Positions 20,406-33,841 of a DNA stretch of 45,815 bases are shown in pieces. Each line of letters begins with the position of its first letter. The stretch's first letter is position 1. Under the pieces are notes generated by a model. That model searched no databases. It worked only from the letters and a program-made list of their open reading frames with translations, and had not been told where the DNA came from. The translations under genes and the position numbers were made by a program. The stretch spans positions 1-45,815 of the forward strand of contig DFFN01000042.1 of the NCBI GenBank assembly GCA_002369525.1, written 5' to 3'. Source of the DNA: Lachnoclostridium sp. UBA3775. Lineage in GTDB: Bacteria > Bacillota > Clostridia > Lachnospirales > Lachnospiraceae.

Positions 20406-20439
20406 AGGCAGGAACCTTTCGGAACCTGCCTCTTTTTTT
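20406..20439. terminator. Probable bidirectional terminator between convergent scpB and the 806-aa gene
   Basis: AGGCAGG...CCTGCCT stem plus inner CC/GG pairs (20406-20431). T7 downstream (20433-20439) and an A-rich run upstream. Overlaps the stop codon of the - strand gene. Confidence 0.6.
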
Positions 20440-22858
20440 ATTCGTCAATGTACTTGTTGTAAAATCTTTTTACTATGATATCAAGAGCATATTCATCAAG
20501 CTTTCCAAAGTTTGAACGAAGAAGAGCCTTAATGCCTTCAATCTTGAGGTCGTAGTTTTCTTCATTGCTTGCCGTGGCTTTCTCAAACTGCTTAGCCGTT
20601 GTCTTGGTGCAGTTGGTAATGAGCCATGAGGTAAACAGTGAGTTCAGCTGACCGCCTGTAAGTGCGAGTACAAAATTAGTGGACTTCAATGCCGTGAAAT
20701 CCTTGGGCTGTGATGTACCCTTAACTGCTTCAACCGAGAAGAGCTTGTTAAGCTCATAGGAATTGGTAGATCTTAGCGTGCCTGTCAGGGAAGCGAGAGA
20801 GTTGCTCGAATCATCGGAACTGCCCTGAGCACCGCCCTTACGGTATTTGGAATAATCAATCTCTGTTCGTGACGTATAGAAGGACATATCGTCTTTTTTC
20901 TGTGAGTAATCGGGAACGAAACCTGTATAGTCAAGTTTAACATCCTCTTCCTCATCAACGACAACGAAATCAGGATTCTTTTCCTTTTTGGGCTTGGCCT
21001 TGTTGGGATTGTTCTTCCTTTCCATGGCACGTTTTTCAGTTTTAGCTTTCAGTTTTTTATAGGCTTCGGGATCGAATCCCATGCTCTGTGCGATCCTTGT
21101 GTCTTCATCGTCGGTATCGTCTTCATGATAATCAGGTACGAAACCTCTGTATATACCCGAATCAATATCGTCAATATTATCGGTATCACCGAACTTGGAA
21201 TTTTTTTTGGAATCAAAAGCAGCTTTGAATTTATCTGCTCCTGATTTCTTTAAATCTTTGTTGATCACTTCTTCGAAAACTTTGTTGTCGGAGCTTGAAC
21301 TCTTTGAACTGTCCTTGGAAGTGAAAGGATTGTCAGCAAAAATATCTTCAACAATCGGTTCGGTTGTATAACGGCTGTCATCATCAAGGCTGAATTCAGG
21401 TTCCTTGCGAATAAAGCTGTCAAATATGCTCTCGGGCGTCTTTTCCTCTTTGGGAGTAGTTATATCTTCGGGAGCAGGGAGTGGAGATGAGAATGTGGAT
21501 TCACCTGAAGACGCAGCAAACTCATTTCCTGAGAAAAAAGGTATACCGGAATCTTCCTGTTCATCATCTGCTTTGGGAACCTCTTCCTTTTGTGCACCGA
21601 AAATCGAATTGAATTTTTCCTGCTTGATAGAAGAGAAGAAGCTGGAATATTCGTCTCCGGAATCATTCTTTTTTACTTCTTCGGTATCTTCTTCAGAACC
21701 GGGCTCAACCTCAACAGCATCAACAACAATGGTGTCACCGATATTGTATTCCTCTACAGGTTCTGTTTCAACAAAGATAGGTCCGTCTTCGGGTTCGATA
21801 TCTTCGAAGAAATTGCTGGTTTCGGGCATCTTGAAATCGGAGGAGACTGCTTCACCGTCAACTCTGGGAATGTAACCGAAGCGTGATTCTTCCGTTTTGC
21901 CGAGCTCATCAAAGCTGAATCCTTTGGAAGTTCTCGTGCTTTTCTGAGTATCGTTAGACTGCTGTTTGAAAAGGTCGGTGAAACGGTTAACCCTCTGTTC
22001 ACTTTCTTCCTTCTTGCGTCTTTCTTCCTCTTCCTTACGGCGTAAAGCTTCCTCGGCAGCACGTTTTCTTTCTTCCTCGGCACGGGCTTTAAGTTCTTCT
22101 TCGGCAGCACGTTTGGCTTCTTCTGCACGGAGTCTTGCTTCTTCTGCCTGAGCTTTCAGGGCATCAATCTTAGCCTGGGCAGCAGCTTTTGCCTGTTCTG
22201 CCTTAAGCTTGGCTTCCTCCTGAATCCTCTTTTTATATTCCTCGGCTTCACGAACCTTTGCTTCAGCTTCTTCACGAGCCCTCTGAGCTTCATTTTTAAC
22301 TCTTTCGGCTTCAGCCTCGGCACGCTTGATTTCTTCGGCCTGTATACGCTTTCTTTCTTCTTCGAGACGTCTGCGTTTTTCTTCCTCTTCCTGCTTTCTG
22401 CGTTCCTCGGCTTCGGCTTTGCGTCTTGCTTCTTCTTCTGCCCTGCGTCTTGCTTCCTCTTCGGCACGTTTCTTTGCTTCTTCTTCGGCGCGACGCTTGT
22501 CTTCCTCAGCTTTGAGACGTTTTGCTTCAATAGCATAGAATGCGGTATAAGCTTTCAAGGCTTCCTTCGATTTTTCGGGAGCAACATTGATCTTATAGTT
22601 TCTTTCGCGAAGATTCATGTTGTAGCTTGACGGTATGCCCTGTGAGTTGAGATATTCAACAACACGTTCTGCTGACTCTTCACTGGTAACAGAAAACAAT
22701 GAAATTGTCTTGTTGGCAGCTTCGGCAGCAGGAGAAGGCTCTTCATTTTTTTCCGGCTCCGGAACTCCGGCAATTGTTATAAGCCCCATTTTGCAATCCG
22801 GACAGATCATAACAGAATCGTCAAAAGTCTTTTTGCATTTGGTACATTGTTTAGACAT
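20438..22858 (-). CDS. Zinc-ribbon protein with ~180-aa E/R/K-rich helix, long acidic disordered region and a conserved C-terminal domain (806 aa)
   Basis: Start set at the ATG at 22858 (GGAGG at 22870-22866, 7-nt spacer); the ORF-track start at 22885 translates the RBS. N-terminus CTKCKKTFDDSVMICPDCKMGL plus an alpha/beta domain that I judge DUF2007-like by recall. Paralog of 28715..29659. Confidence 0.6.
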   Translation of the reverse strand: MSKQCTKCKKTFDDSVMICPDCKMGLITIAGVPEPEKNEEPSPAAEAANKTISLFSVTSEESAERVVEYLNSQGIPSSYNMNLRERNYKINVAPEKSKEALKAYTAFYAIEAKRLKAEEDKRRAEEEAKKRAEEEARRRAEEEARRKAEAEERRKQEEEEKRRRLEEERKRIQAEEIKRAEAEAERVKNEAQRAREEAEAKVREAEEYKKRIQEEAKLKAEQAKAAAQAKIDALKAQAEEARLRAEEAKRAAEEELKARAEEERKRAAEEALRRKEEEERRKKEESEQRVNRFTDLFKQQSNDTQKSTRTSKGFSFDELGKTEESRFGYIPRVDGEAVSSDFKMPETSNFFEDIEPEDGPIFVETEPVEEYNIGDTIVVDAVEVEPGSEEDTEEVKKNDSGDEYSSFFSSIKQEKFNSIFGAQKEEVPKADDEQEDSGIPFFSGNEFAASSGESTFSSPLPAPEDITTPKEEKTPESIFDSFIRKEPEFSLDDDSRYTTEPIVEDIFADNPFTSKDSSKSSSSDNKVFEEVINKDLKKSGADKFKAAFDSKKNSKFGDTDNIDDIDSGIYRGFVPDYHEDDTDDEDTRIAQSMGFDPEAYKKLKAKTEKRAMERKNNPNKAKPKKEKNPDFVVVDEEEDVKLDYTGFVPDYSQKKDDMSFYTSRTEIDYSKYRKGGAQGSSDDSSNSLASLTGTLRSTNSYELNKLFSVEAVKGTSQPKDFTALKSTNFVLALTGGQLNSLFTSWLITNCTKTTAKQFEKATASNEENYDLKIEGIKALLRSNFGKLDEYALDIIVKRFYNKYIDE

Positions 22859-22892
22859 TCTTTCTCCTCCTGTGTAGAATAACACTTAATAT

Positions 22893-22921: not shown

Positions 22922-23097
22922 GCACAAGCAGTGTACAATAAAAATTACTTGAACAAATGACGTGATTTTTTACATTTTTGTAATTAATCATTTTAAATAT
23001 AACGTTTTTTACAAAATAATTAAATTTATATACCGGATGAACGAAATATTTTTTCTTTTTTTGTAAGTTTTGATCAATGAAAAATCTGCCGGTTTTC

Positions 23098-23106
23098 TGT
23101 TATAAT
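23098..23106 (+). promoter_or_regulatory. Extended -10 promoter element TGTTATAAT
   Basis: TGnTATAAT at 23098-23106 with only a weak -35 (ATGAAA). Would give a ~100-nt 5'UTR for the 251-aa/adhesin operon. Confidence 0.4.
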
Positions 23107-23162
23107 TGCTCATATAAAAAAGTCTTCCGGATTTTTAAAATCCGTCGGTTTCATTTGGTGAA

Positions 23163-23212
23163 GCTGCAGGCGCGTCACCAAAGGGTATAACGCCTGCGTC
23201 ATGGTACGATAA
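23163..23212 (+). promoter_or_regulatory. Conserved leader element, copy A (GC hairpin + ATGGTACGATAA abutting the start codon)
   Basis: GCTGCAGGCG...CGCCTGCGTC inverted repeat followed by ATGGTACGATAA|ATG. Near-identical copy at 29809-29859. No Shine-Dalgarno for the downstream ORF. Confidence 0.5.
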
Positions 23213-23968
23213 ATGAAGAAAAAAATATGTTTCTTTATTGCGGCTTTATTTCTTTTGTTGTTTATTCTATATCTTAAGACAAACCGCATCAGTTCAAAGG
23301 TTAAAAATCAAATGAATATCCCGACTGCTACGGAAACAATTGCAAAACCCGAACTGACAATTGTGGAGCCGACAAAAAAGATAAGCGTCAGGGTATCAAC
23401 ACCTGAAGTCTCAAAAGCAATGATTCCGGAAATAGCAGGAGATCCGACAATGATTACAAAAACAATAAAGCCGACACTAACGGCCGGTCCGACATATCTG
23501 CCGGAAACAATTACTGTCCCAACAATTATTCCGGAACATATTACAATTGCATTGACGAAAGAACCGTTTCCGACAACGTTACCGACACAGACAATAATAA
23601 TAACGCCAACGCCTGCAGCGATAACATCAAAAGTGATTTCGGAAGCCTTGTCATCCGAATGTTTACACAAAAGAAAGAAAACAATATATGAAACCGTAAC
23701 AGTAAATGCCGAAGGCATATGGGTTGATGTGGAGGTTTATAAAGAGATGCTTGTCTGTGAGTGCGGAAAGAGGGAAGATGAATTTGATGACATATCAGAT
23801 TTTTATCTTCATTGTCTTAAAAATGACGAAAATTACTGTTTGGAAAATGTTCCAAGCGGTGAATATTACAGGGAGTGGAAGGAAACACGTGCCGAATACA
23901 CTTATGAAAGAGAGGTGGGATGGATATGCCCTGATTGCAATGAAAAGTATTATAATAAGCAGAATTGA
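23213..23968 (+). CDS. Signal-anchored Pro/Thr/Ile-rich protein with Cys-rich C-terminal domain (251 aa, unknown function)
   Basis: N-terminal TM (ICFFIAALFLLLFILYL), a ~110-aa P/T-rich linker, and a C-terminal ~100 aa with 7 Cys (CxC, CPDC). The adhesin gene starts 12 nt downstream. Confidence 0.65.
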   Translation: MKKKICFFIAALFLLLFILYLKTNRISSKVKNQMNIPTATETIAKPELTIVEPTKKISVRVSTPEVSKAMIPEIAGDPTMITKTIKPTLTAGPTYLPETITVPTIIPEHITIALTKEPFPTTLPTQTIIITPTPAAITSKVISEALSSECLHKRKKTIYETVTVNAEGIWVDVEVYKEMLVCECGKREDEFDDISDFYLHCLKNDENYCLENVPSGEYYREWKETRAEYTYEREVGWICPDCNEKYYNKQN

Positions 23969-26900: not shown

Positions 26901-28672
26901 CAGATTATCCCGAGGGGGCAGAGCTTTTGATGACAAATGAGGCTGTCAGAGGCGACATAAGCCTTCGAAAAAAGAACCTGAATAATGACGAGGGCATGAA
27001 AAATATAAGCTTCAGGCTTTCGCTTCTTGACGCCGAAGGGAAAATTACCGAATCAAATATCATCACCACAGGAACGGAAGGCGAATATGATTCGATAAAT
27101 GATGACAAGCTTAAATTTGCAGGCAAAAAAGGTCTGGTATACGGAAAATACATGCTCGAAGAGATTAGAAACGATGCAAATAAGGGCTATATACTTGCCG
27201 ATCCCATAATCTTTGAAATAAGCGAGGACAAGCAAAAGCTTGAATTCATAATATGTAATGCACCCGAACCTGAGCTTTCAACTTTTGAAGCGGATGTTAA
27301 CATGGGAAAACACTTCAGCTTTTCAGGAAAGATCAAGGTAAAGGATACGGTGAAATACAATAATCTTGAAGCAGGTAAGGAATATACTGTCAAAGGAATC
27401 CTTATGAAAAAGTCGGAGGATGAAATAAAGCCTCTTAAAGATAAGAACGGTAATTTAATCTGCGCCAACAGTTACATAGTAACGCCCGGTGAATTTTCCA
27501 AAAACCGTTATGAATTCTGCGGAGAAACCGAGCTGCTGTTTGAGTTTGAAGACGAAAAAGAAAACGGTACCTGCTTTGTGATATTTGAATACCTGTTTGA
27601 AGGAAAAGATGAGGAAAAACTTAAAACAGACGAAAATGACCGTGTGATAACAGGTGATGTATACAAAGACAAAGAAGGAAATGAGGTAAAGCATACCGAT
27701 GCAAATGATGTAAATCAGACCGGATATATACCGGTCATACATACCAAAGCAAGAGATTCAAAAACAGGAGAAAATATTGCGCTTGCAGCTAAGGATACGG
27801 TTCTGATCGATAAGGTAAGCATATCCGGAATAATACCGGATGAGGATTATGTGATAAAGGGCCGGCTTTATATCAAGAATGATAAGGACTTTTATAAGAA
27901 TGAAAACGGCGAAATACTGGTTGTTGAAAAAGAGCTTAAGGCTTCGGCTGCAGAGCCCCGGCTTGAACTGGTTTTTGAGATTGATGCATCTGAGCTTAAA
28001 GGAAAAGATATAGTGGTTTTTGAAGAGCTGTATTATGGCGATGATCTGATTGCAAAGCATGAAGATGCAGATGACGTGGATCAGACTATAAGCTTTCCGG
28101 AGGGAAAAACAAAGGCTTCAAACAAGGAAGGAAACGGAAATGTAATTAATAACGATGGTCTTTCTACAATTGTAGACAAAGTCATGTATAATAATCTGAT
28201 TCCGGGAAAAAACTATGTTCTTAAGGCCGTTCTAATGGATAAGGCTGACAACAGTGTGATCAAAAGAGAAAACGGAGAAGAATTCTATGTCCTGAGGGAT
28301 TTTATACCAAAGGAAAAGAGCGGGGAAGAAGAGCTTACGATCGTAATTGACAGTAAGCTTGTCGCCGGAAAGACTCTGGTTGTTTTTGAAGAATGTACGC
28401 GTGACGGGAAAAAAGTTTTTATCCATGCTGACATAAATGACGGTGAACAGACCGTTTTTGTACCCGAAATTCCCGAAGAACCGGAAAAGCCGGAAACACC
28501 GGATGTTCCTGAAACACCGGACACTCCAAAAACTCCTGAAACACCAAATAAGCCTTCCGAGCCTTCTTCGCCAAAAACGGCCGATGATTTTGACAGCAGA
28601 TACTTTTTGTTTGCGCTTATCTCGGTAATAACTCTGGGATTTTCCGAAAGAATGAAAAAGAAACACAGATAA
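23981..28672 (+). CDS. Cell-wall-anchored surface adhesin, 1563 aa (SpaA/CnaB-like domains + 3 VaFE/Thr-Gln ester repeats + SPKTA sorting signal)
   Basis: Signal peptide (..NLAAFA|ME). SpaA-like blocks (GAVYSLFY, GLPAGFYALAETKRP, GTVFRLDYY, ISFRLSLLDAEG..GKYMLEEI). Three repeats ending HxDxxDxxQT. Pro-rich stalk, SPKTAD, a hydrophobic helix and an RMKKKHR tail. Confidence 0.85.
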   Translation: MKNINKKMIAGLLMLVLLAGIILGESNLAAFAMESKEKEKVSLSFNDKGKLFFEKERGNQACFKSGETVKVYFDAIEDYALTELNVYSASGNIEYEMDMQQNCFTFVKPDESVMVSAVFSWMRTTGLNKVGKAEVVGGIEYIINNIDEKYIALKNIKEIVPADGIWVKDTLADGSKLKEKTIDAMTSVVECDDPDFDAYALISQTDSVSILYDADPTSDYYVSYVDKMTNDNESYISDFCFAYTNMNGEVIKDCIFDRKTGLAYVPKKYTVENKNGLGVLNVQVQLLHIFRNNEAKAGVNVIIEKDGIKGKTAESGKIKTDAVYEEIYIQLAEDKKALSEIKEENLRVYVDGISNSDFSYSEESGVLAINAGAAGIDTVEISINKEKENNAVTDLLLRASGIMGLKANAADATTMRSIPVSGQVIKVSDVPVVGDSWEMNWWYNYIGRSIGDYNLKANSGTATFYDEECKAAANSLYNGVNTSSVNAGINVDGAYAYTLDINGNVLDGLSAVQDYVINNNGKYSLDKAVSMISGNMNGELITVGGPRTDAVSASKGWYTKSSNGRTYVYDGWYNNSGQTYIENYYRSINTDIKEAYISTGSQNLKKMVDNNIDPLACSYVIYMKCNHSGASFGENNSRRVMARVIAVNENEGTMYIAYTSSKDNTQTTSAIYKYRYVLPEEPLGSVRFKKGSSMKSITDNNKCYSFEGAVYSLFYKKESNPVAVYNNDGYVFNQGIKVAEFVVGADGNGRADKLNLAEFKNLEISTDKLILGGLPAGFYALAETKRPDNNSYAIEREIHRFEINRENAENTVMISGSDIPYNDPMLITIKKEGLNSASFDMSGTVFRLDYYDDFYEKAEELPEECTKTWYLSPKKAKDTYICAYDEAYITKQAGYISDSLYTSLENKPVLPLGTIVLREVKAAQGFVKNSGELKDSKGNVFPNNVFIGRVSYSEELGRACLKGIYGKQSALYFADYPEGAELLMTNEAVRGDISLRKKNLNNDEGMKNISFRLSLLDAEGKITESNIITTGTEGEYDSINDDKLKFAGKKGLVYGKYMLEEIRNDANKGYILADPIIFEISEDKQKLEFIICNAPEPELSTFEADVNMGKHFSFSGKIKVKDTVKYNNLEAGKEYTVKGILMKKSEDEIKPLKDKNGNLICANSYIVTPGEFSKNRYEFCGETELLFEFEDEKENGTCFVIFEYLFEGKDEEKLKTDENDRVITGDVYKDKEGNEVKHTDANDVNQTGYIPVIHTKARDSKTGENIALAAKDTVLIDKVSISGIIPDEDYVIKGRLYIKNDKDFYKNENGEILVVEKELKASAAEPRLELVFEIDASELKGKDIVVFEELYYGDDLIAKHEDADDVDQTISFPEGKTKASNKEGNGNVINNDGLSTIVDKVMYNNLIPGKNYVLKAVLMDKADNSVIKRENGEEFYVLRDFIPKEKSGEEELTIVIDSKLVAGKTLVVFEECTRDGKKVFIHADINDGEQTVFVPEIPEEPEKPETPDVPETPDTPKTPETPNKPSEPSSPKTADDFDSRYFLFALISVITLGFSERMKKKHR
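27269..28465 (+). repeat. Three tandem ~120-155-aa VaFE-type (Cpe0147-like Thr-Gln ester bond) domain repeats within the adhesin
   Basis: Each unit has an N-terminal Thr (LSTFEA / IHTKAR / GKTKAS), a V(V/I)FEE(L/C/Y) strand and a C-terminal HxDxxDxxQ motif (KHTDANDVNQT, KHEDADDVDQT, IHADINDGEQT). Confidence 0.6.
28466..28576 (+). repeat. Pro-rich P-E-x-P tandem repeat stalk (PEIPEEPEKPETPDVPETPDTPKTPETPNKPSEPSSP)
   Basis: Repeated CCNGAAACACC(G/A)-type units at DNA level; the wall-spanning linker before the sorting motif. Confidence 0.6.
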
Positions 28673-28716
28673 AAAAAGTGTCAGAGCAGTAACTAAACCG
28701 CTCTGACACTTTTTTT
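28671..28716. terminator. Bidirectional rho-independent terminator
   Basis: Perfect 11-bp stem AGTGTCAGAGC / GCTCTGACACT (28677-28710) flanked by A7 and T6. Shared by the convergent adhesin and 314-aa genes, and overlaps both stop codons. Confidence 0.85.
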
Positions 28717-29659
28717 AGTCGTCAAATAAACCGTTATAATATTCTTCGACCAAAGAATCAAGATAAACTTCATCAAGCGAAACAAGCTCGGGTATTTCCA
28801 GGGTCATACGCTTTTTTATGTAATCTATGCGAAGAAGGAAGTTTTCTTCGGGGCTGTTTTCAGAAGAGTCGGCACTTTTAATATCGTCTGCGCTGATATT
28901 CTGTGAAAGCCAGGTTTTAATGTGGTTTGTCAGCTGTTCTTCCTGAACCGAGTCGGCCTGATATTCCTTGGATTTTTTGAGAGAATGAAAACCCCAGTAT
29001 GTCATGGCAACGAACATGAACAGCATCATTATGTATGAGAAAAGCTGCGTATTTACAATTGAAAGCAGTCCGAGCATATGAAGCAGGACAAAAACAATTC
29101 CGCCGATTCCTATAAATATCAGCATATAGCCGCTTCCTGACATTTCCTCGGCTTTGGCTTTTTTGGATTCGTAGACCGTTGATCCGCCGGCATATACGAA
29201 ATCCCTCAGTGTATCTATTTCCTCTTCAGAGGATTCTCTATTATCATTTTCAGATGCTTCCGGGCTGTCTGGATGCTTATCCTCAGCTTCGTGCAGTTTC
29301 TTAAGATTGGAAGCGACCTCCTGCATATTGACTGTGTCGACAATATACGACCCGTCGATCTGCCTTACACAGGCAAGATTTCCTTCAACCTTTACAAAGG
29401 CAGCCAAAGCCTTTTTGGCCTGATCGTAATCATCTTCGGAAAAAGAAAGATAATCAATATCATCAACATAAACAGGCTTTGCCTGAATCCTGCTGTATTC
29501 CAGATATTTTATAAATTTGGAATAGGCTTCATCATCGTTAAAATGGCAGAGCGGTCTGTCGGAAGAAATGTCCAACGAAGCAACCAAGGGGGTATTGCAA
29601 TCGCTGCAAAAGGTGAAACCGTCTCTGTATTCATTCTTGCATTTGGGACACCAGGGCAT
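28715..29659 (-). CDS. Zinc-ribbon membrane protein (314 aa), short paralog of 20438..22858
   Basis: CPKCKNEYRDGFTFCSDCNTPL plus the same alpha/beta domain. Two TM helices (GYMLIFIGIGGIVFVLLHMLGLL, LFSYIMMLFMFVAMTYWGF). The C-terminal QL..WL..N...EEN..L.I..IK...LDE..LD..V..YYN pattern is shared with the 806-aa protein. Confidence 0.6.
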   Translation of the reverse strand: MPWCPKCKNEYRDGFTFCSDCNTPLVASLDISSDRPLCHFNDDEAYSKFIKYLEYSRIQAKPVYVDDIDYLSFSEDDYDQAKKALAAFVKVEGNLACVRQIDGSYIVDTVNMQEVASNLKKLHEAEDKHPDSPEASENDNRESSEEEIDTLRDFVYAGGSTVYESKKAKAEEMSGSGYMLIFIGIGGIVFVLLHMLGLLSIVNTQLFSYIMMLFMFVAMTYWGFHSLKKSKEYQADSVQEEQLTNHIKTWLSQNISADDIKSADSSENSPEENFLLRIDYIKKRMTLEIPELVSLDEVYLDSLVEEYYNGLFDD

Positions 29660-29751: not shown

Positions 29752-29780
29752 TTGAAGAATTCCGAAAGCTATGATAAAAT
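29752..29780 (+). promoter_or_regulatory. Sigma-A promoter: TTGAAG - 17 nt spacer (ending in TGA) - TAAAAT, i.e. extended -10 TGATAAAAT
   Basis: -35 at 29752-29757; TGn plus -10 at 29772-29780. Predicted TSS ~29787 gives a ~72-nt leader containing the conserved element. Confidence 0.6.
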
Positions 29781-29808
29781 AACAACATAAATAAGAAGCT
29801 GAGGAATA

Positions 29809-29859
29809 GCTGCAGGCGTGTCACCGGATTGGCACCACGCCTGTGGTATGGTACGATAA
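29809..29859 (+). promoter_or_regulatory. Conserved leader element, copy B
   Basis: GCTGCAGGCGTG / CACGCCTGTGGT 12-bp stem (3 G-U), loop beginning TCACC, then ATGGTACGATAA|ATG. No Shine-Dalgarno for the radical-SAM ORF. Confidence 0.5.
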
Positions 29860-31731
29860 ATGAAAGAAACAAAGCTTGCTCTTTCCGAAGAAATATTAAT
29901 GAACATCGAAAAACCGGCGAGATATATCGGTGGTGAAGTTAATATGTCGGAAAAATACAAAGAGAATGTCGACATCAGGTTTTGCATGTGCTTTCCCGAT
30001 GTATATGAGATCGGAATGAGTCATCTGGGCATTCAGATTTTATATGATATGTTTAATAAAACAGATGGTGTAAGCTGTGAAAGAGTATATTCTCCATGGC
30101 CCGATCTTGACAGGATCATGAGAGAGAAAAATATACTCTTGTTTTCTCTTGAATCCCAGAGACCCATAAAGGAATTTGACTTTCTCGGTATCACGCTTCA
30201 GTATGAAATGTGTTACACGAATATACTGCAGATACTTGATCTGTCCGGCATTCCCCTGTTTTCGAAGGACAGAACAGAAGAGGATCCAATTGTCATAGGC
30301 GGCGGTCCCTGTTCATATAATCCGGAGCCCATTGCAGATTTTTTCGATATTTTTTATCTTGGCGAGGGAGAGACAAGATATGCCGAGCTTTTAATGCTCT
30401 ACAGACAATGTCGTAGGGAAAAGCTTGGCAGAGAGGAATTTCTAAAAAGAGCATGCCGTATACCGGGCATTTATGTTCCTTCTCTTTACAGTGTTGACTA
30501 TAATGATGACGGAACAATAAAAAGCTTTGAGCCGCTTTACGATTTTGTGCCGTCAAAAGTTAAAAAAGAAGTTGAAATGAATATGTCTGACACATATTAT
30601 CCCGAAAAACCCCTGATTCCCAATATTCAGGCGGTTCAGGACCGTGCAACTCTTGAAATCCAGCGCGGCTGCATAAGAGGATGCAGATTTTGTCAGGCAG
30701 GTATGATATACCGTCCGATAAGAGAAAGAAGCCTTGAATTTTTAAAGGATAAGGCAAAGAAAATGCTTGATTCCACAGGTTATGAAGAAATTACGTTAAG
30801 CTCCTTAAGCTCAAGCGATTATTCGAAGTTAAAAGAACTTGTTTATTTTCTTATTGACGAATACAGCAGCAAAAATATAAATATAGCCCTGCCTTCTCTG
30901 AGAATAGATGCTTTTGCCCTCGATGTTATGAGCAAGGTTCAGGACATAAACAAAAGCTCTGTTACTTTTGCCCCCGAAGCAGGCTCGCAAAGGATGAGAG
31001 ACACCATAAACAAAGGTCTTACCAAAGAGGATATTTTAAAGGGCTCAAGGCTTGCTTTCGAAGGTGGCTGGAACAAGGTAAAGCTTTATTTCATGCTCGG
31101 TCTTCCGACGGAAACCGAAGAGGATGCGAGAGATATCGCCAGACTGGCAAATGATATTGCGGTGGAATACTATGAAATTCCCAAGGATCAAAGGAACGGC
31201 AAGGTTTCGATAACGATAAGCACTTCTTTCTTTGTGCCGAAACCTTTTACTCCTTTCCAGTGGACTGCAATGGCTTCCAAGGAAGAATATCTTAGCCATA
31301 AATCTGCCCTGAGGGATGAGCTCGGAAAAATGCTTAATGCTAAGAGCATAAAATATAACTGGCATGACTCTGACACATCCGAGCTTGAGGGGGTATTCGC
31401 AAGAGGCGACAGAAGACTGGCTGCCGTAATATATGATGTGTATTCAAAGGGGTGTATTTTTGATGCCTGGGTTGAATATTTCAAATACGATGTATGGGAA
31501 GAATCCATAAGGTCACACGGTCTGTCCTTTGAATTTTACAACAGGCGTGAAAGAAGCTATGATGAAATACTTCCGTGGGATTTTATTGATGCTGGTGTAA
31601 GCAGGAATTTCCTGAAAAGAGAATACGAAAATGCAAAAAAGGCTGTTGTGACACCGAACTGCAGGGAAAAATGCTCCGGCTGCGGTGCTGCAGGCTATGG
31701 CGGAGGTGTATGCTTTGAGAGTAAGAATTAA
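29860..31731 (+). CDS. Radical SAM protein, TIGR03960-like (B12-binding-like N-domain), function unknown
   Basis: N-terminal KPARYIGGE signature and a CIRGCRFC (CxxxCxxC) cluster; 623 aa. Followed by its usual DUF2344 partner. Confidence 0.85.
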   Translation: MKETKLALSEEILMNIEKPARYIGGEVNMSEKYKENVDIRFCMCFPDVYEIGMSHLGIQILYDMFNKTDGVSCERVYSPWPDLDRIMREKNILLFSLESQRPIKEFDFLGITLQYEMCYTNILQILDLSGIPLFSKDRTEEDPIVIGGGPCSYNPEPIADFFDIFYLGEGETRYAELLMLYRQCRREKLGREEFLKRACRIPGIYVPSLYSVDYNDDGTIKSFEPLYDFVPSKVKKEVEMNMSDTYYPEKPLIPNIQAVQDRATLEIQRGCIRGCRFCQAGMIYRPIRERSLEFLKDKAKKMLDSTGYEEITLSSLSSSDYSKLKELVYFLIDEYSSKNINIALPSLRIDAFALDVMSKVQDINKSSVTFAPEAGSQRMRDTINKGLTKEDILKGSRLAFEGGWNKVKLYFMLGLPTETEEDARDIARLANDIAVEYYEIPKDQRNGKVSITISTSFFVPKPFTPFQWTAMASKEEYLSHKSALRDELGKMLNAKSIKYNWHDSDTSELEGVFARGDRRLAAVIYDVYSKGCIFDAWVEYFKYDVWEESIRSHGLSFEFYNRRERSYDEILPWDFIDAGVSRNFLKREYENAKKAVVTPNCREKCSGCGAAGYGGGVCFESKN

Positions 31732-33726: not shown

Positions 33727-33729
33727 TTG

Positions 33730-33758
33730 TTGACTTTTTTTGGGAATTTTGTTATATT
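33730..33758 (+). promoter_or_regulatory. Sigma-A promoter: TTGACT - 17 nt - TATATT with TGn extension
   Basis: -35 at 33730-33735; TGT+TATATT at 33750-33758. Upstream of rplU. Confidence 0.6.
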
Positions 33759-33764
33759 ATTTGA

Positions 33765-33835
33765 GTATGCCGCTTGGCGAGGTTTACAAGTATCGATGAT
33801 CACCGAAGCCAGCGAGTAATGATAATAGGAGGTGC
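33765..33835 (+). ncRNA. Structured rplU 5' leader (L21-leader-like ribosomal protein autoregulatory element)
   Basis: CGCT(T)GGC (33771-33778) pairs with GCCAGCG (33808-33814), and an inner GGT pairs with ACC. Position upstream of rplU-prp-rpmA matches the Firmicute L21 leader; class not verified. Confidence 0.4.
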
Positions 33836-33841
33836 CTTAAT

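Follow-up and report, generated by a model that had tools for sequence, protein, structure and literature searches.

Why does the same GC-rich hairpin stand directly in front of two unrelated genes in one clostridial genome? The question is raised by contig DFFN01000042.1 of Lachnoclostridium sp. UBA3775 (GenBank assembly GCA_002369525.1), a stretch of 45,815 nucleotides (nt) that we call the window, in which a hairpin and a following 17-mer that runs through the start codon precede both an adhesin operon (copy A) and an operon headed by a radical-SAM gene (copy B). An initial annotation, made from the sequence alone, had viewed the two copies as a conserved cis-regulatory RNA leader of no assignable class. 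Our comparisons indicate instead a young GC-rich block of about 46 nt, confined to one Lachnospiraceae lineage rather than forming a conserved RNA class, which stands before at least three unrelated genes and probably alters their translation.

Both copies (A, 23163-23217; B, 29809-29864) were present exactly as first transcribed. The 17-mer ATGGTACGATAAATGAA occurs exactly twice in the window (23201-23217 and 29848-29864); with up to 3 mismatches, we found 3 matches for 0.31 expected, a number that 0 of 100 shuffles reached. The string GCTGCAGGCGYGTCACC is found in the window at 23163 and 29809 only. The consensus of the block reads GCUGCAGGCGYGUCACC, an apical region, ACGCCUGYGKY and AUGGUAC, and its GC content is far above that of its host DNA. 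The parts of the two copies are the following.

23163 to 23207, plus strand: copy A of the ~46-nt GC-rich block, GCTGCAGG...ATGGTAC.
23163 to 23174 and 23189 to 23200, plus strand: arms of the main hairpin (P-main) of copy A, with the apical region at 23175 to 23188.
23201 to 23212, plus strand: block-borne upstream AUG and 3-codon open reading frame (ORF), AUG GUA CGA UAA, of copy A; its stop adjoins the main AUG at 23213.
29809 to 29854, plus strand: copy B of the block, with a P-main of 12 base pairs (bp; 29809-29820 with 29836-29847).
29848 to 29859, plus strand: upstream AUG and 3-codon ORF of copy B; its stop adjoins the main AUG at 29860.

The stems agree with their first description, with 12 bp in B and, in A, a 7-bp core (23166-23172 with 23191-23197) flanked by weaker outer pairs; the difference between C23197 and T29844 does convert a G-C pair into G-U, and the mini-ORF ATG GTA CGA TAA adjoins the main ATG in both copies. 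By itself, the stability of the hairpins is unremarkable (z = -1.9 for A and -2.4 for B). The flanks had been called unrelated, which is not wholly the case since GAAGCTG recurs 5' of both copies, and the loops of A and B proved to be diverged homologues rather than unrelated sequence.

We then looked into the history of copy B through the orthologues of its radical-SAM gene, whose protein forms one cluster at 99% identity before the next relatives drop to 77%. The closest of these, L204 (77%), has the same gene order, with the adhesin operon, a zinc-ribbon gene on the minus strand and the radical-SAM gene, and there the latter has an ordinary Shine-Dalgarno (SD) motif and no block. In L003, L004, and L006 (71 to 76% protein identity), a plain GGAG-type SD lies 6 to 10 nt from the radical-SAM ATG, again with no block. 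A three-way alignment of the window, L204, and L003 revealed that the promoter block TTGAAGA...TATGATAAAATAA is homologous, as are the SD regions (GAGGAATA in the window, AAGGAAATA in L204) and the coding start ATGAAAGAA (in all three), and that 46 to 51 extra nt are present in the window only, precisely between the SD and the ATG. Since promoter, SD region and coding start are homologous and only the window has the extra nucleotides, copy B is, relative to these relatives, an insertion into a translation initiation region. The initial annotation had named absence upstream of orthologous genes as the result that would speak against a conserved leader, and the block is absent from this position in L003, L004, L006, and L204. 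A likeness of the 17-mer of B to the native leader of L003 (ATGGAGACGATTATG) is coincidental according to the same alignment.

We also searched for further copies in other genomes. The pattern CGCCTGN{3,8}GGTACGATAAATG, which joins the 3' arm to a 13-mer, gave 4 matches in 185,579 species-representative genomes, all in unrelated coding sequence without a hairpin, and thus no true copy. A covariance model (R1) built from 7 distinct block sequences found no further copy in the sequences of the relatives examined. Two viral scans returned chance matches only, lacking the partner motif, and plasmids and phages gave no match; a literature search on the sequence strings and TIGR03960 was likewise negative.

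Copies beyond A and B do exist, however, at a third locus. A scan of 241 million metagenome records gave 74 matches, 71 of which were chance matches in GC-rich coding DNA or ordinary terminators (e.g., L161 and L129/L141), and it led to a block in front of moaC in contig L189; a search with MoaC then added L200 and L203. These copies of the block precede a moaC-modA pair. The tail reads ATGGTAC-ATTAA-ATG in L200 and L203, giving a mini-ORF M-V-H-stop, so that the UAA directly adjoins the main AUG there as it does in A and B; in L189 it reads ATGGTAC-AAAAA-ATG, where the stop is lost, the upstream AUG is in frame and the protein is four residues longer. L199 carries a moaC 99.8% identical to that of L200 from GGTAC onward but without the block, the breakpoint being exactly at GGTAC, and it keeps the ancestral moeA-moaC junction, as found in L202. 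Relatives of moaC at 71 to 77% identity, including L201 and L202, have no block either. Between L189 and L200, 44 of 333 moaC coding positions differ (13%; 30% of third positions), whereas a 52-nt core and a 19-nt hairpin upstream of it, H1 (GAAAGU/ACUUUC), are identical, and the differences in the leader are limited to a 6- to 7-nt linker and a 5-nt spacer. This identity of the core despite coding divergence points to constraint. Compared with one another, the A, B, and moaC copies are related as a mosaic.

Some further observations concern the surroundings of the moaC unit. Across the clade (L199, L200, L189, and L203, with alleles 0.2 to 13% apart), the sequence to the left of moaC comes in four versions. 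Contig L203 starts precisely where the 82-nt unit does, and in L200 the unit is abutted by a truncated minus-strand ORF that resembles a P-loop ATPase. Terminator stems followed by a T-run in the unrelated contigs L161 (451-481), L129, and L141 share GCAGGCGTGTC / CACGCCTG with the block, probably by chance given how the pattern was designed, although such stems are a possible source of the hairpin.

We then analyzed the ribosome-binding signals of the block-led genes. Within 20 nt of the start, SD complementarity amounts to -2.8 and -3.8 kcal/mol for the two genes of the window, compared to about -6 to -11 for most of its genes, and 5 or 6 others are as weak. The two genes had been said to have no ribosome-binding site (RBS), which was an error, for an SD-like motif sits 5' of each hairpin (GGTGA at 23157-23161 for A, GAGG at 29801-29804 for B):

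23157 to 23161, plus strand: SD-like GGUGA, 1 nt 5' of the base of the copy A hairpin; duplex of -7.4 kcal/mol with the tail of 16S rRNA.
29801 to 29808, plus strand: native SD region GAGGAAUA of the radical-SAM gene, split from its ATG by the block; duplex of -5.6 kcal/mol.

The second of these aligns with AAGGAAATA of L204, about 10 nt before the ATG of the L204 gene, and the native SD of the copy B gene, displaced by the insertion, now lies 43 nt upstream of the block AUG. The three loci share one layout, with the hairpin following the SD-like motif at once, 1 nt after GGUGA in A and moaC and behind an AAUA after GAGG in B. Alignment on the 16S tail gives the hairpin a common register in all of them, and the moaC copies keep GGUGA despite different flanks. 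The duplex energies (-7.4, -5.6, and -7.4 kcal/mol for A, B, and moaC) are reached by 3 to 11% of background windows (3% for A).

The linear distance from GGUGA or GAGG to the block AUG is 39 to 43 nt. On the other side, the 3' base of the stem directly abuts the block AUG (AUGGUAC), which always lies 12 nt, or four codons, before the main AUG. The predicted stem of 12 bp (B, moaC) or 7 to 10 bp (A) would leave 1 to 4 nt plus the helix end between SD and AUG. In silico removal of the block yields GGUGAA|GAUAAAUG for A, GAGGAAUA|GAUAAAUG for B, and GGUGAC|AUUAAAUG for moaC, with canonical spacing in all three.

The GGUGA motif has a second possible role. GGUGAC(GC) is complementary at every position to the (GC)GUCACC of the block, and in copy A the GGUGA at 23157-23161 is also the 5' strand of an alternative helix with UCACC (23175-23179). 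In the moaC copies, folding predicts a structure in which GGUGACGC pairs with GCGUCACC, the linker extends the helix, and ACCA and the UGGU at the upstream AUG form a small hairpin. This alternative fold is the predicted minimum-energy structure, 5.6 to 6.2 kcal/mol more stable than P-main, so that the bridging hairpin is not the minimum-energy fold of the moaC copies. The alternative helix is weakened in the copy A alleles, which are predicted to prefer P-main by 4 to 8 kcal/mol, and lost in copy B, for which only P-main is predicted. The linkers of L189 (CCCUUU) and L200 (CUCGUCC) are dissimilar, and each lengthens the alternative helix with a gain of about -9 to -10 kcal/mol, a value matched by only 1.2 to 1.3% of random linkers, which lends this helix indirect support. 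The ACC(A/G):UGGU pairing that had been noticed earlier belongs to this alternative fold; the H-type pseudoknot built on it fails on geometry, as 1 nt would have to span a 12-bp helix, and it is incompatible with the full stem.

Strain variants of the window's species are informative about the apical region. A second strain (98.8% identity over 21.9 kilobases [kb]) and a third one, known from metagenome contigs, have both A and B, in which stems and tail are unchanged, and all differences in A and B among the three strains are confined to the apical loops:

Copy A loop alleles, plus strand, within 23175 to 23188: AAAGGGTATA, AAAGGGTATC, AAATTGTATC.
Copy B loop alleles, plus strand, within 29821 to 29835: GGATTGGCACC, GGATCGGCACC.

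The apical region thus drifts in the window's species and is invariant in the moaC copies, because in the latter it would be base-paired in the alternative fold. In numbers, strains that are 1.2% divergent overall show 4 substitutions in 21 apical-loop nt (23175-23188 and 29821-29835) and 0 elsewhere in the units. A diversity-generating retroelement was rejected as their source, the changes not being adenine-specific and no reverse transcriptase being encoded nearby.

The same loop changes create TTG in A (AGGGTA to ATTGTA) and destroy it in B (TTGGCA to TCGGCA), at a -35-like distance from the TGnTACGAT of the block, and copy B contains a promoter-like match with TG upstream (TTGGCA-17-TACGAT, 29829-29857). 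We rejected a promoter inside the block: transcription would be predicted to start after the conserved start codon, so that the full gene could not be expressed, and the -10 element is lost in L189. We also considered a leader peptide or minus-strand gene across the block. The corresponding ORF has no SD and, although uninterrupted in L189 and L200, is broken in both copies of the window, and we read it as chance.

How, then, could genes with such an insert be translated? A 12-bp GC stem between SD and AUG must affect initiation, and an RNA-level effect on translation is therefore the most economical reading. We propose that the P-main stem would loop out about 39 nt and bring the SD and the block AUG to within about 1 to 4 nt plus the helix end. 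Initiation would take place at the upstream AUG, and after three codons the ribosome would terminate at the UAA and reinitiate at the main AUG beside it. In the moaC version, the alternative fold would bury both SD and AUG, possibly creating an on/off translational switch, and the copies of the window, biased (A) or locked (B) into P-main, would be derived and probably constitutive versions. The full model, which combines a split initiation region, a relay ORF and a two-state switch in the moaC version, is put forward tentatively, with the chances judged close to even but somewhat short of it.

This arrangement can be compared with known systems. In genes 38 and 25 of phage T4, SD and AUG are 22 and 27 nt apart in the linear sequence, and a hairpin shortens these distances to 5 and 11 nt (PMC3014915). 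The block resembles them in its linearly distant SD (39 to 43 nt here; 22 and 27 nt in T4), its stable intervening hairpin and its narrow lineage (PMC3014915). It differs in being cellular, in placing the same hairpin at three unrelated genes with at least one copy an insertion, and in that its function here is predicted only; moreover, the AUG that it juxtaposes opens a 3-codon relay ORF and is not the gene's own start. Like SD-sequestering two-state leaders (translational riboswitches and RNA thermometers), the moaC version pairs UCACC with GGUGA and ACCA with UGGU, exclusively of P-main, but unlike them the block has no covariation or Rfam match, its window copies are biased toward or locked in one state, and no aptamer or ligand has been identified. 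In A, B, L200, and L203, the contact between UAA and main AUG recalls short upstream ORFs that work by termination and reinitiation, but the ORF here has only three codons, is brought in by an inserted block and has lost its stop in L189.

If the model is true, the block would represent a hairpin-bridged RBS that occurs naturally in a cell, a concept that, to our knowledge, so far rests essentially on the two T4 genes. The case would be unusual in that one hairpin serves three genes with nothing in common and passes ribosomes on by way of a 3-codon ORF. It would illustrate how a gene can tolerate or exploit an insert that falls in its most sensitive 10 nt, and would provide a compact module of about 50 nt tying translation to RNA folding. 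For annotation, it is a warning that genes listed as having no SD may have one displaced by a structured insert. A bolder version is that the block is a portable translation-control cassette that enters SD-to-AUG spacers with its own relay AUG and anti-SD (UCACC/CACC) and a signal-responsive two-state fold, the moaC copies being the intact switch and those of the window locked-on derivatives; we know of no prior description of a cellular, movable split-RBS switch, and we regard this version as unlikely.

Several results weigh against the translational model. Promoters, folds and ribosome behavior are all predictions. The presence/absence polymorphism of L199 and L200 fits a dispensable insertion equally well. 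The leader of L203 equals that of L200 at 82 of 82 nt, yet its coding sequence differs by 10% and is nearer to L189, which indicates that the identity of the moaC leaders stems partly from recombination and not from selection alone. The number of pairs with changes on both sides is 0 for P-main and 1 for the alternative fold, no better than shuffles among 7 near-identical sequences. The GGUGA of copy A is itself predicted to be paired in the minimum-free-energy structure, which would hinder initiation. Finally, the downstream genes are incoherent, comprising an orphan membrane protein with a TQ/SpaA adhesin, a radical-SAM protein with DUF2344 and RNase G, and moaC-modA.

Does the block belong to a known class of RNA? 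Rfam 15 gave 0 matches at the gathering score across the window, so the block is in no known family, as the initial annotation had supposed, and with the threshold relaxed to E<=10 the regions of A, B, and the moaC copies drew no more than noise-level matches to eukaryotic or viral models. What stands of the proposed cis-regulatory leader is that it is unclassified and structured, lies in a predicted 5' untranslated region (UTR) and has a third copy; its conservation at orthologous genes does not stand.

The alternative that fares best sees in the block a DNA-level palindromic repeat without regulatory role, either low-copy and REP/MITE-like (repetitive extragenic palindrome/miniature inverted-repeat transposable element) or recombination-borne, which spread by transposition, template switching or microhomology-mediated recombination and is merely tolerated. 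We consider it possible, though on the unlikely side. Elements such as REP/BIME, Correia, RUP/BOX, and the Rickettsia palindromic elements are likewise GC-rich imperfect palindromes in transcribed intergenic DNA, patchy, polymorphic and able to alter the expression of neighbors. The patchiness of the block, absent at the orthologous site in the four nearest relatives and from the species representatives scanned, is what such a repeat would show, as are the filled and empty states of two moaC alleles with 99.8% identity, which part at GGTAC, the three left flanks beside the moaC unit together with the break of L203 at its left edge, the GC excess over host DNA, the clustering of strain differences at junctions and loops, and the mosaic relation of the copies. 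Against a mobile repeat, the metagenome scan gave only three loci, and the window has two copies in 45.8 kb. The families cited also differ from the block, which has a very low copy number, no terminal inverted repeat (TIR), target-site duplication (TSD) or transposase, and a fixed position and orientation at start codons. Indeed, we found no TIR beyond the stem, no fixed target tetranucleotide and no consistent TSD (left flanks GGTGAA, GGAATA, and GGTGAC; right flanks GATAA, ATTAA, and AAAAA); the arms of A and B lack the GTTRRRY or AAC cores of integron attC sites; and no transposase was present among the scanned neighboring genes of the window or nearby, nor any match in plasmids or phages. 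Orientation and distance to the start codon are the same in all copies, which random insertion would not lead one to expect. The block may be mobile or spread by recombination, both being candidates for its origin, and a palindromic insertion and an effect on translation are not mutually exclusive. Should the palindromic repeat be the whole explanation, the block would be a rare insertion of local interest.

The remaining alternatives are weaker than the palindromic repeat. A protein could bind the block as DNA. It would then be an operator (GGTGACGC-N7-GCGTCACC or GCAGGCG-N18-CGCCTGC) or else a target of a recombinase, and under the latter reading A and B as direct repeats would allow excision of the 6.6-kb adhesin and zinc-ribbon segment. 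Two nested inverted repeats, the bracketing of the adhesin operon by A and B, and the variable orientation of the zinc-ribbon gene among relatives, a sign of local rearrangements, agree with such a site. Against it, the left half of the 8-N7-8 palindrome is missing from B, the adjacent genes encode neither a recombinase nor a regulator, and no A/B hybrid junction, as deletion would leave, is present among the metagenome matches; the linker complementarity that extends the alternative helix and the conserved AUGGUAC tail would also be left unexplained. We find a protein site distinctly improbable.

A new class of metabolite riboswitch with P-main as aptamer, serving molybdenum cofactor (Moco) or molybdate genes and secondarily recruited elsewhere, is very improbable. 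The two exclusive folds involving SD and AUG, the position of the moaC copies before moaC-modA, their strongly conserved core and the lack of a match to any known family would suit a riboswitch. Covariation is absent, however, among the 7 near-identical sequences, the taxonomic range is tiny, and the moaC relatives at 71 to 77% identity do without the block; copy B cannot switch, and in the window's species the apical region varies freely. That the downstream genes share no pathway also argues against a metabolite riboswitch. The least probable alternative is a site of RNase processing or stability, with RNase III acting on the 12-bp stem or RNase G/E on the AU-rich tail and possibly autoregulating the RNase G operon, since the long perfect stem followed by AU-rich ACGAUAAAUGAA and the position of copy B ahead of that operon are offset by two other loci without an RNase link, relatives with the same operon and no block, and nothing nuclease-specific in the sequence.

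Returning to the window, which derives from an uncultured member of the Lachnospiraceae, its gene order is scpB, a gene for an 815-residue (amino acids [aa]) repeat protein on the minus strand, copy A, genes for a 251-aa orphan membrane protein and a 1563-aa TQ/SpaA adhesin, the zinc-ribbon membrane protein gene on the minus strand, copy B, genes for the TIGR03960 radical-SAM protein, DUF2344 and RNase G, and then the L21-L27-Obg genes. The features around the two copies are the following.

23077 to 23106, plus strand: promoter-like site for the copy A transcript, ATGAAA-18-TATAAT, with TG upstream.
23128 to 23144, plus strand: small AT-rich hairpin of the copy A leader, CGGAUUU/AAAUCCG, predicted by folding.
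23213 to 23968, plus strand: gene for the 251-aa orphan membrane-anchored protein, gene 1 of the adhesin operon.
29752 to 29780, plus strand: promoter-like site of the radical-SAM operon, TTGAAG-17-TAAAAT, with TG upstream, aligned with the motif of L204 and L003.
29860 to 31731, plus strand: TIGR03960-type radical-SAM gene, first of the radical-SAM/DUF2344/RNase G operon.

Both copies thus appear to lie within 5' UTRs, downstream of predicted sigma-70-like promoters. The GCCGnTTTTCTGTT block around the promoter of copy A is kept upstream of the adhesin operon of L204, and the AT-rich hairpin of the copy A leader is the positional counterpart of H1 in the moaC copies. Homologues of the 251-aa protein, sought in order to trace the history of copy A, were limited to a single database match, an annotation of this very protein that lacks its first 33 residues (218 aa, with 23312 as start); we infer from the N-terminal hydrophobic segment that the true start is 23213. 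The N terminus MKETKLAL of the radical-SAM protein is kept in the relatives.

Other features of the window were noted in passing. The minus-strand orientation that the zinc-ribbon membrane gene (MPWCPKCKNEY..., 28715-29659) has in the window is shared by L003 and L204, and in L004 and L006 the gene is on the plus strand, as gene 1 of the operon, from which it follows that the locus was inverted during the divergence of these lineages. The 815-aa protein (20438-22885, minus strand) has no Pfam match and is charged, with about 13 degenerate repeats of 21 to 27 nt at 21997-22507 that are rich in E, K, R, and A; its length varies from 657 to 815 aa among relatives, its position after scpB is constant, and translation probably begins at codon 9, an ATG with an AGGAGG SD. 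Upstream of rplU (33727-33841), no match to the Rfam L21 leader was obtained, although L21-Prp-L27 genes lie downstream of the RNase G gene. A 20-bp perfect hairpin with flanking A- and T-runs (28670-28717), which lies where the adhesin and zinc-ribbon genes converge, has the appearance of a bidirectional intrinsic terminator.

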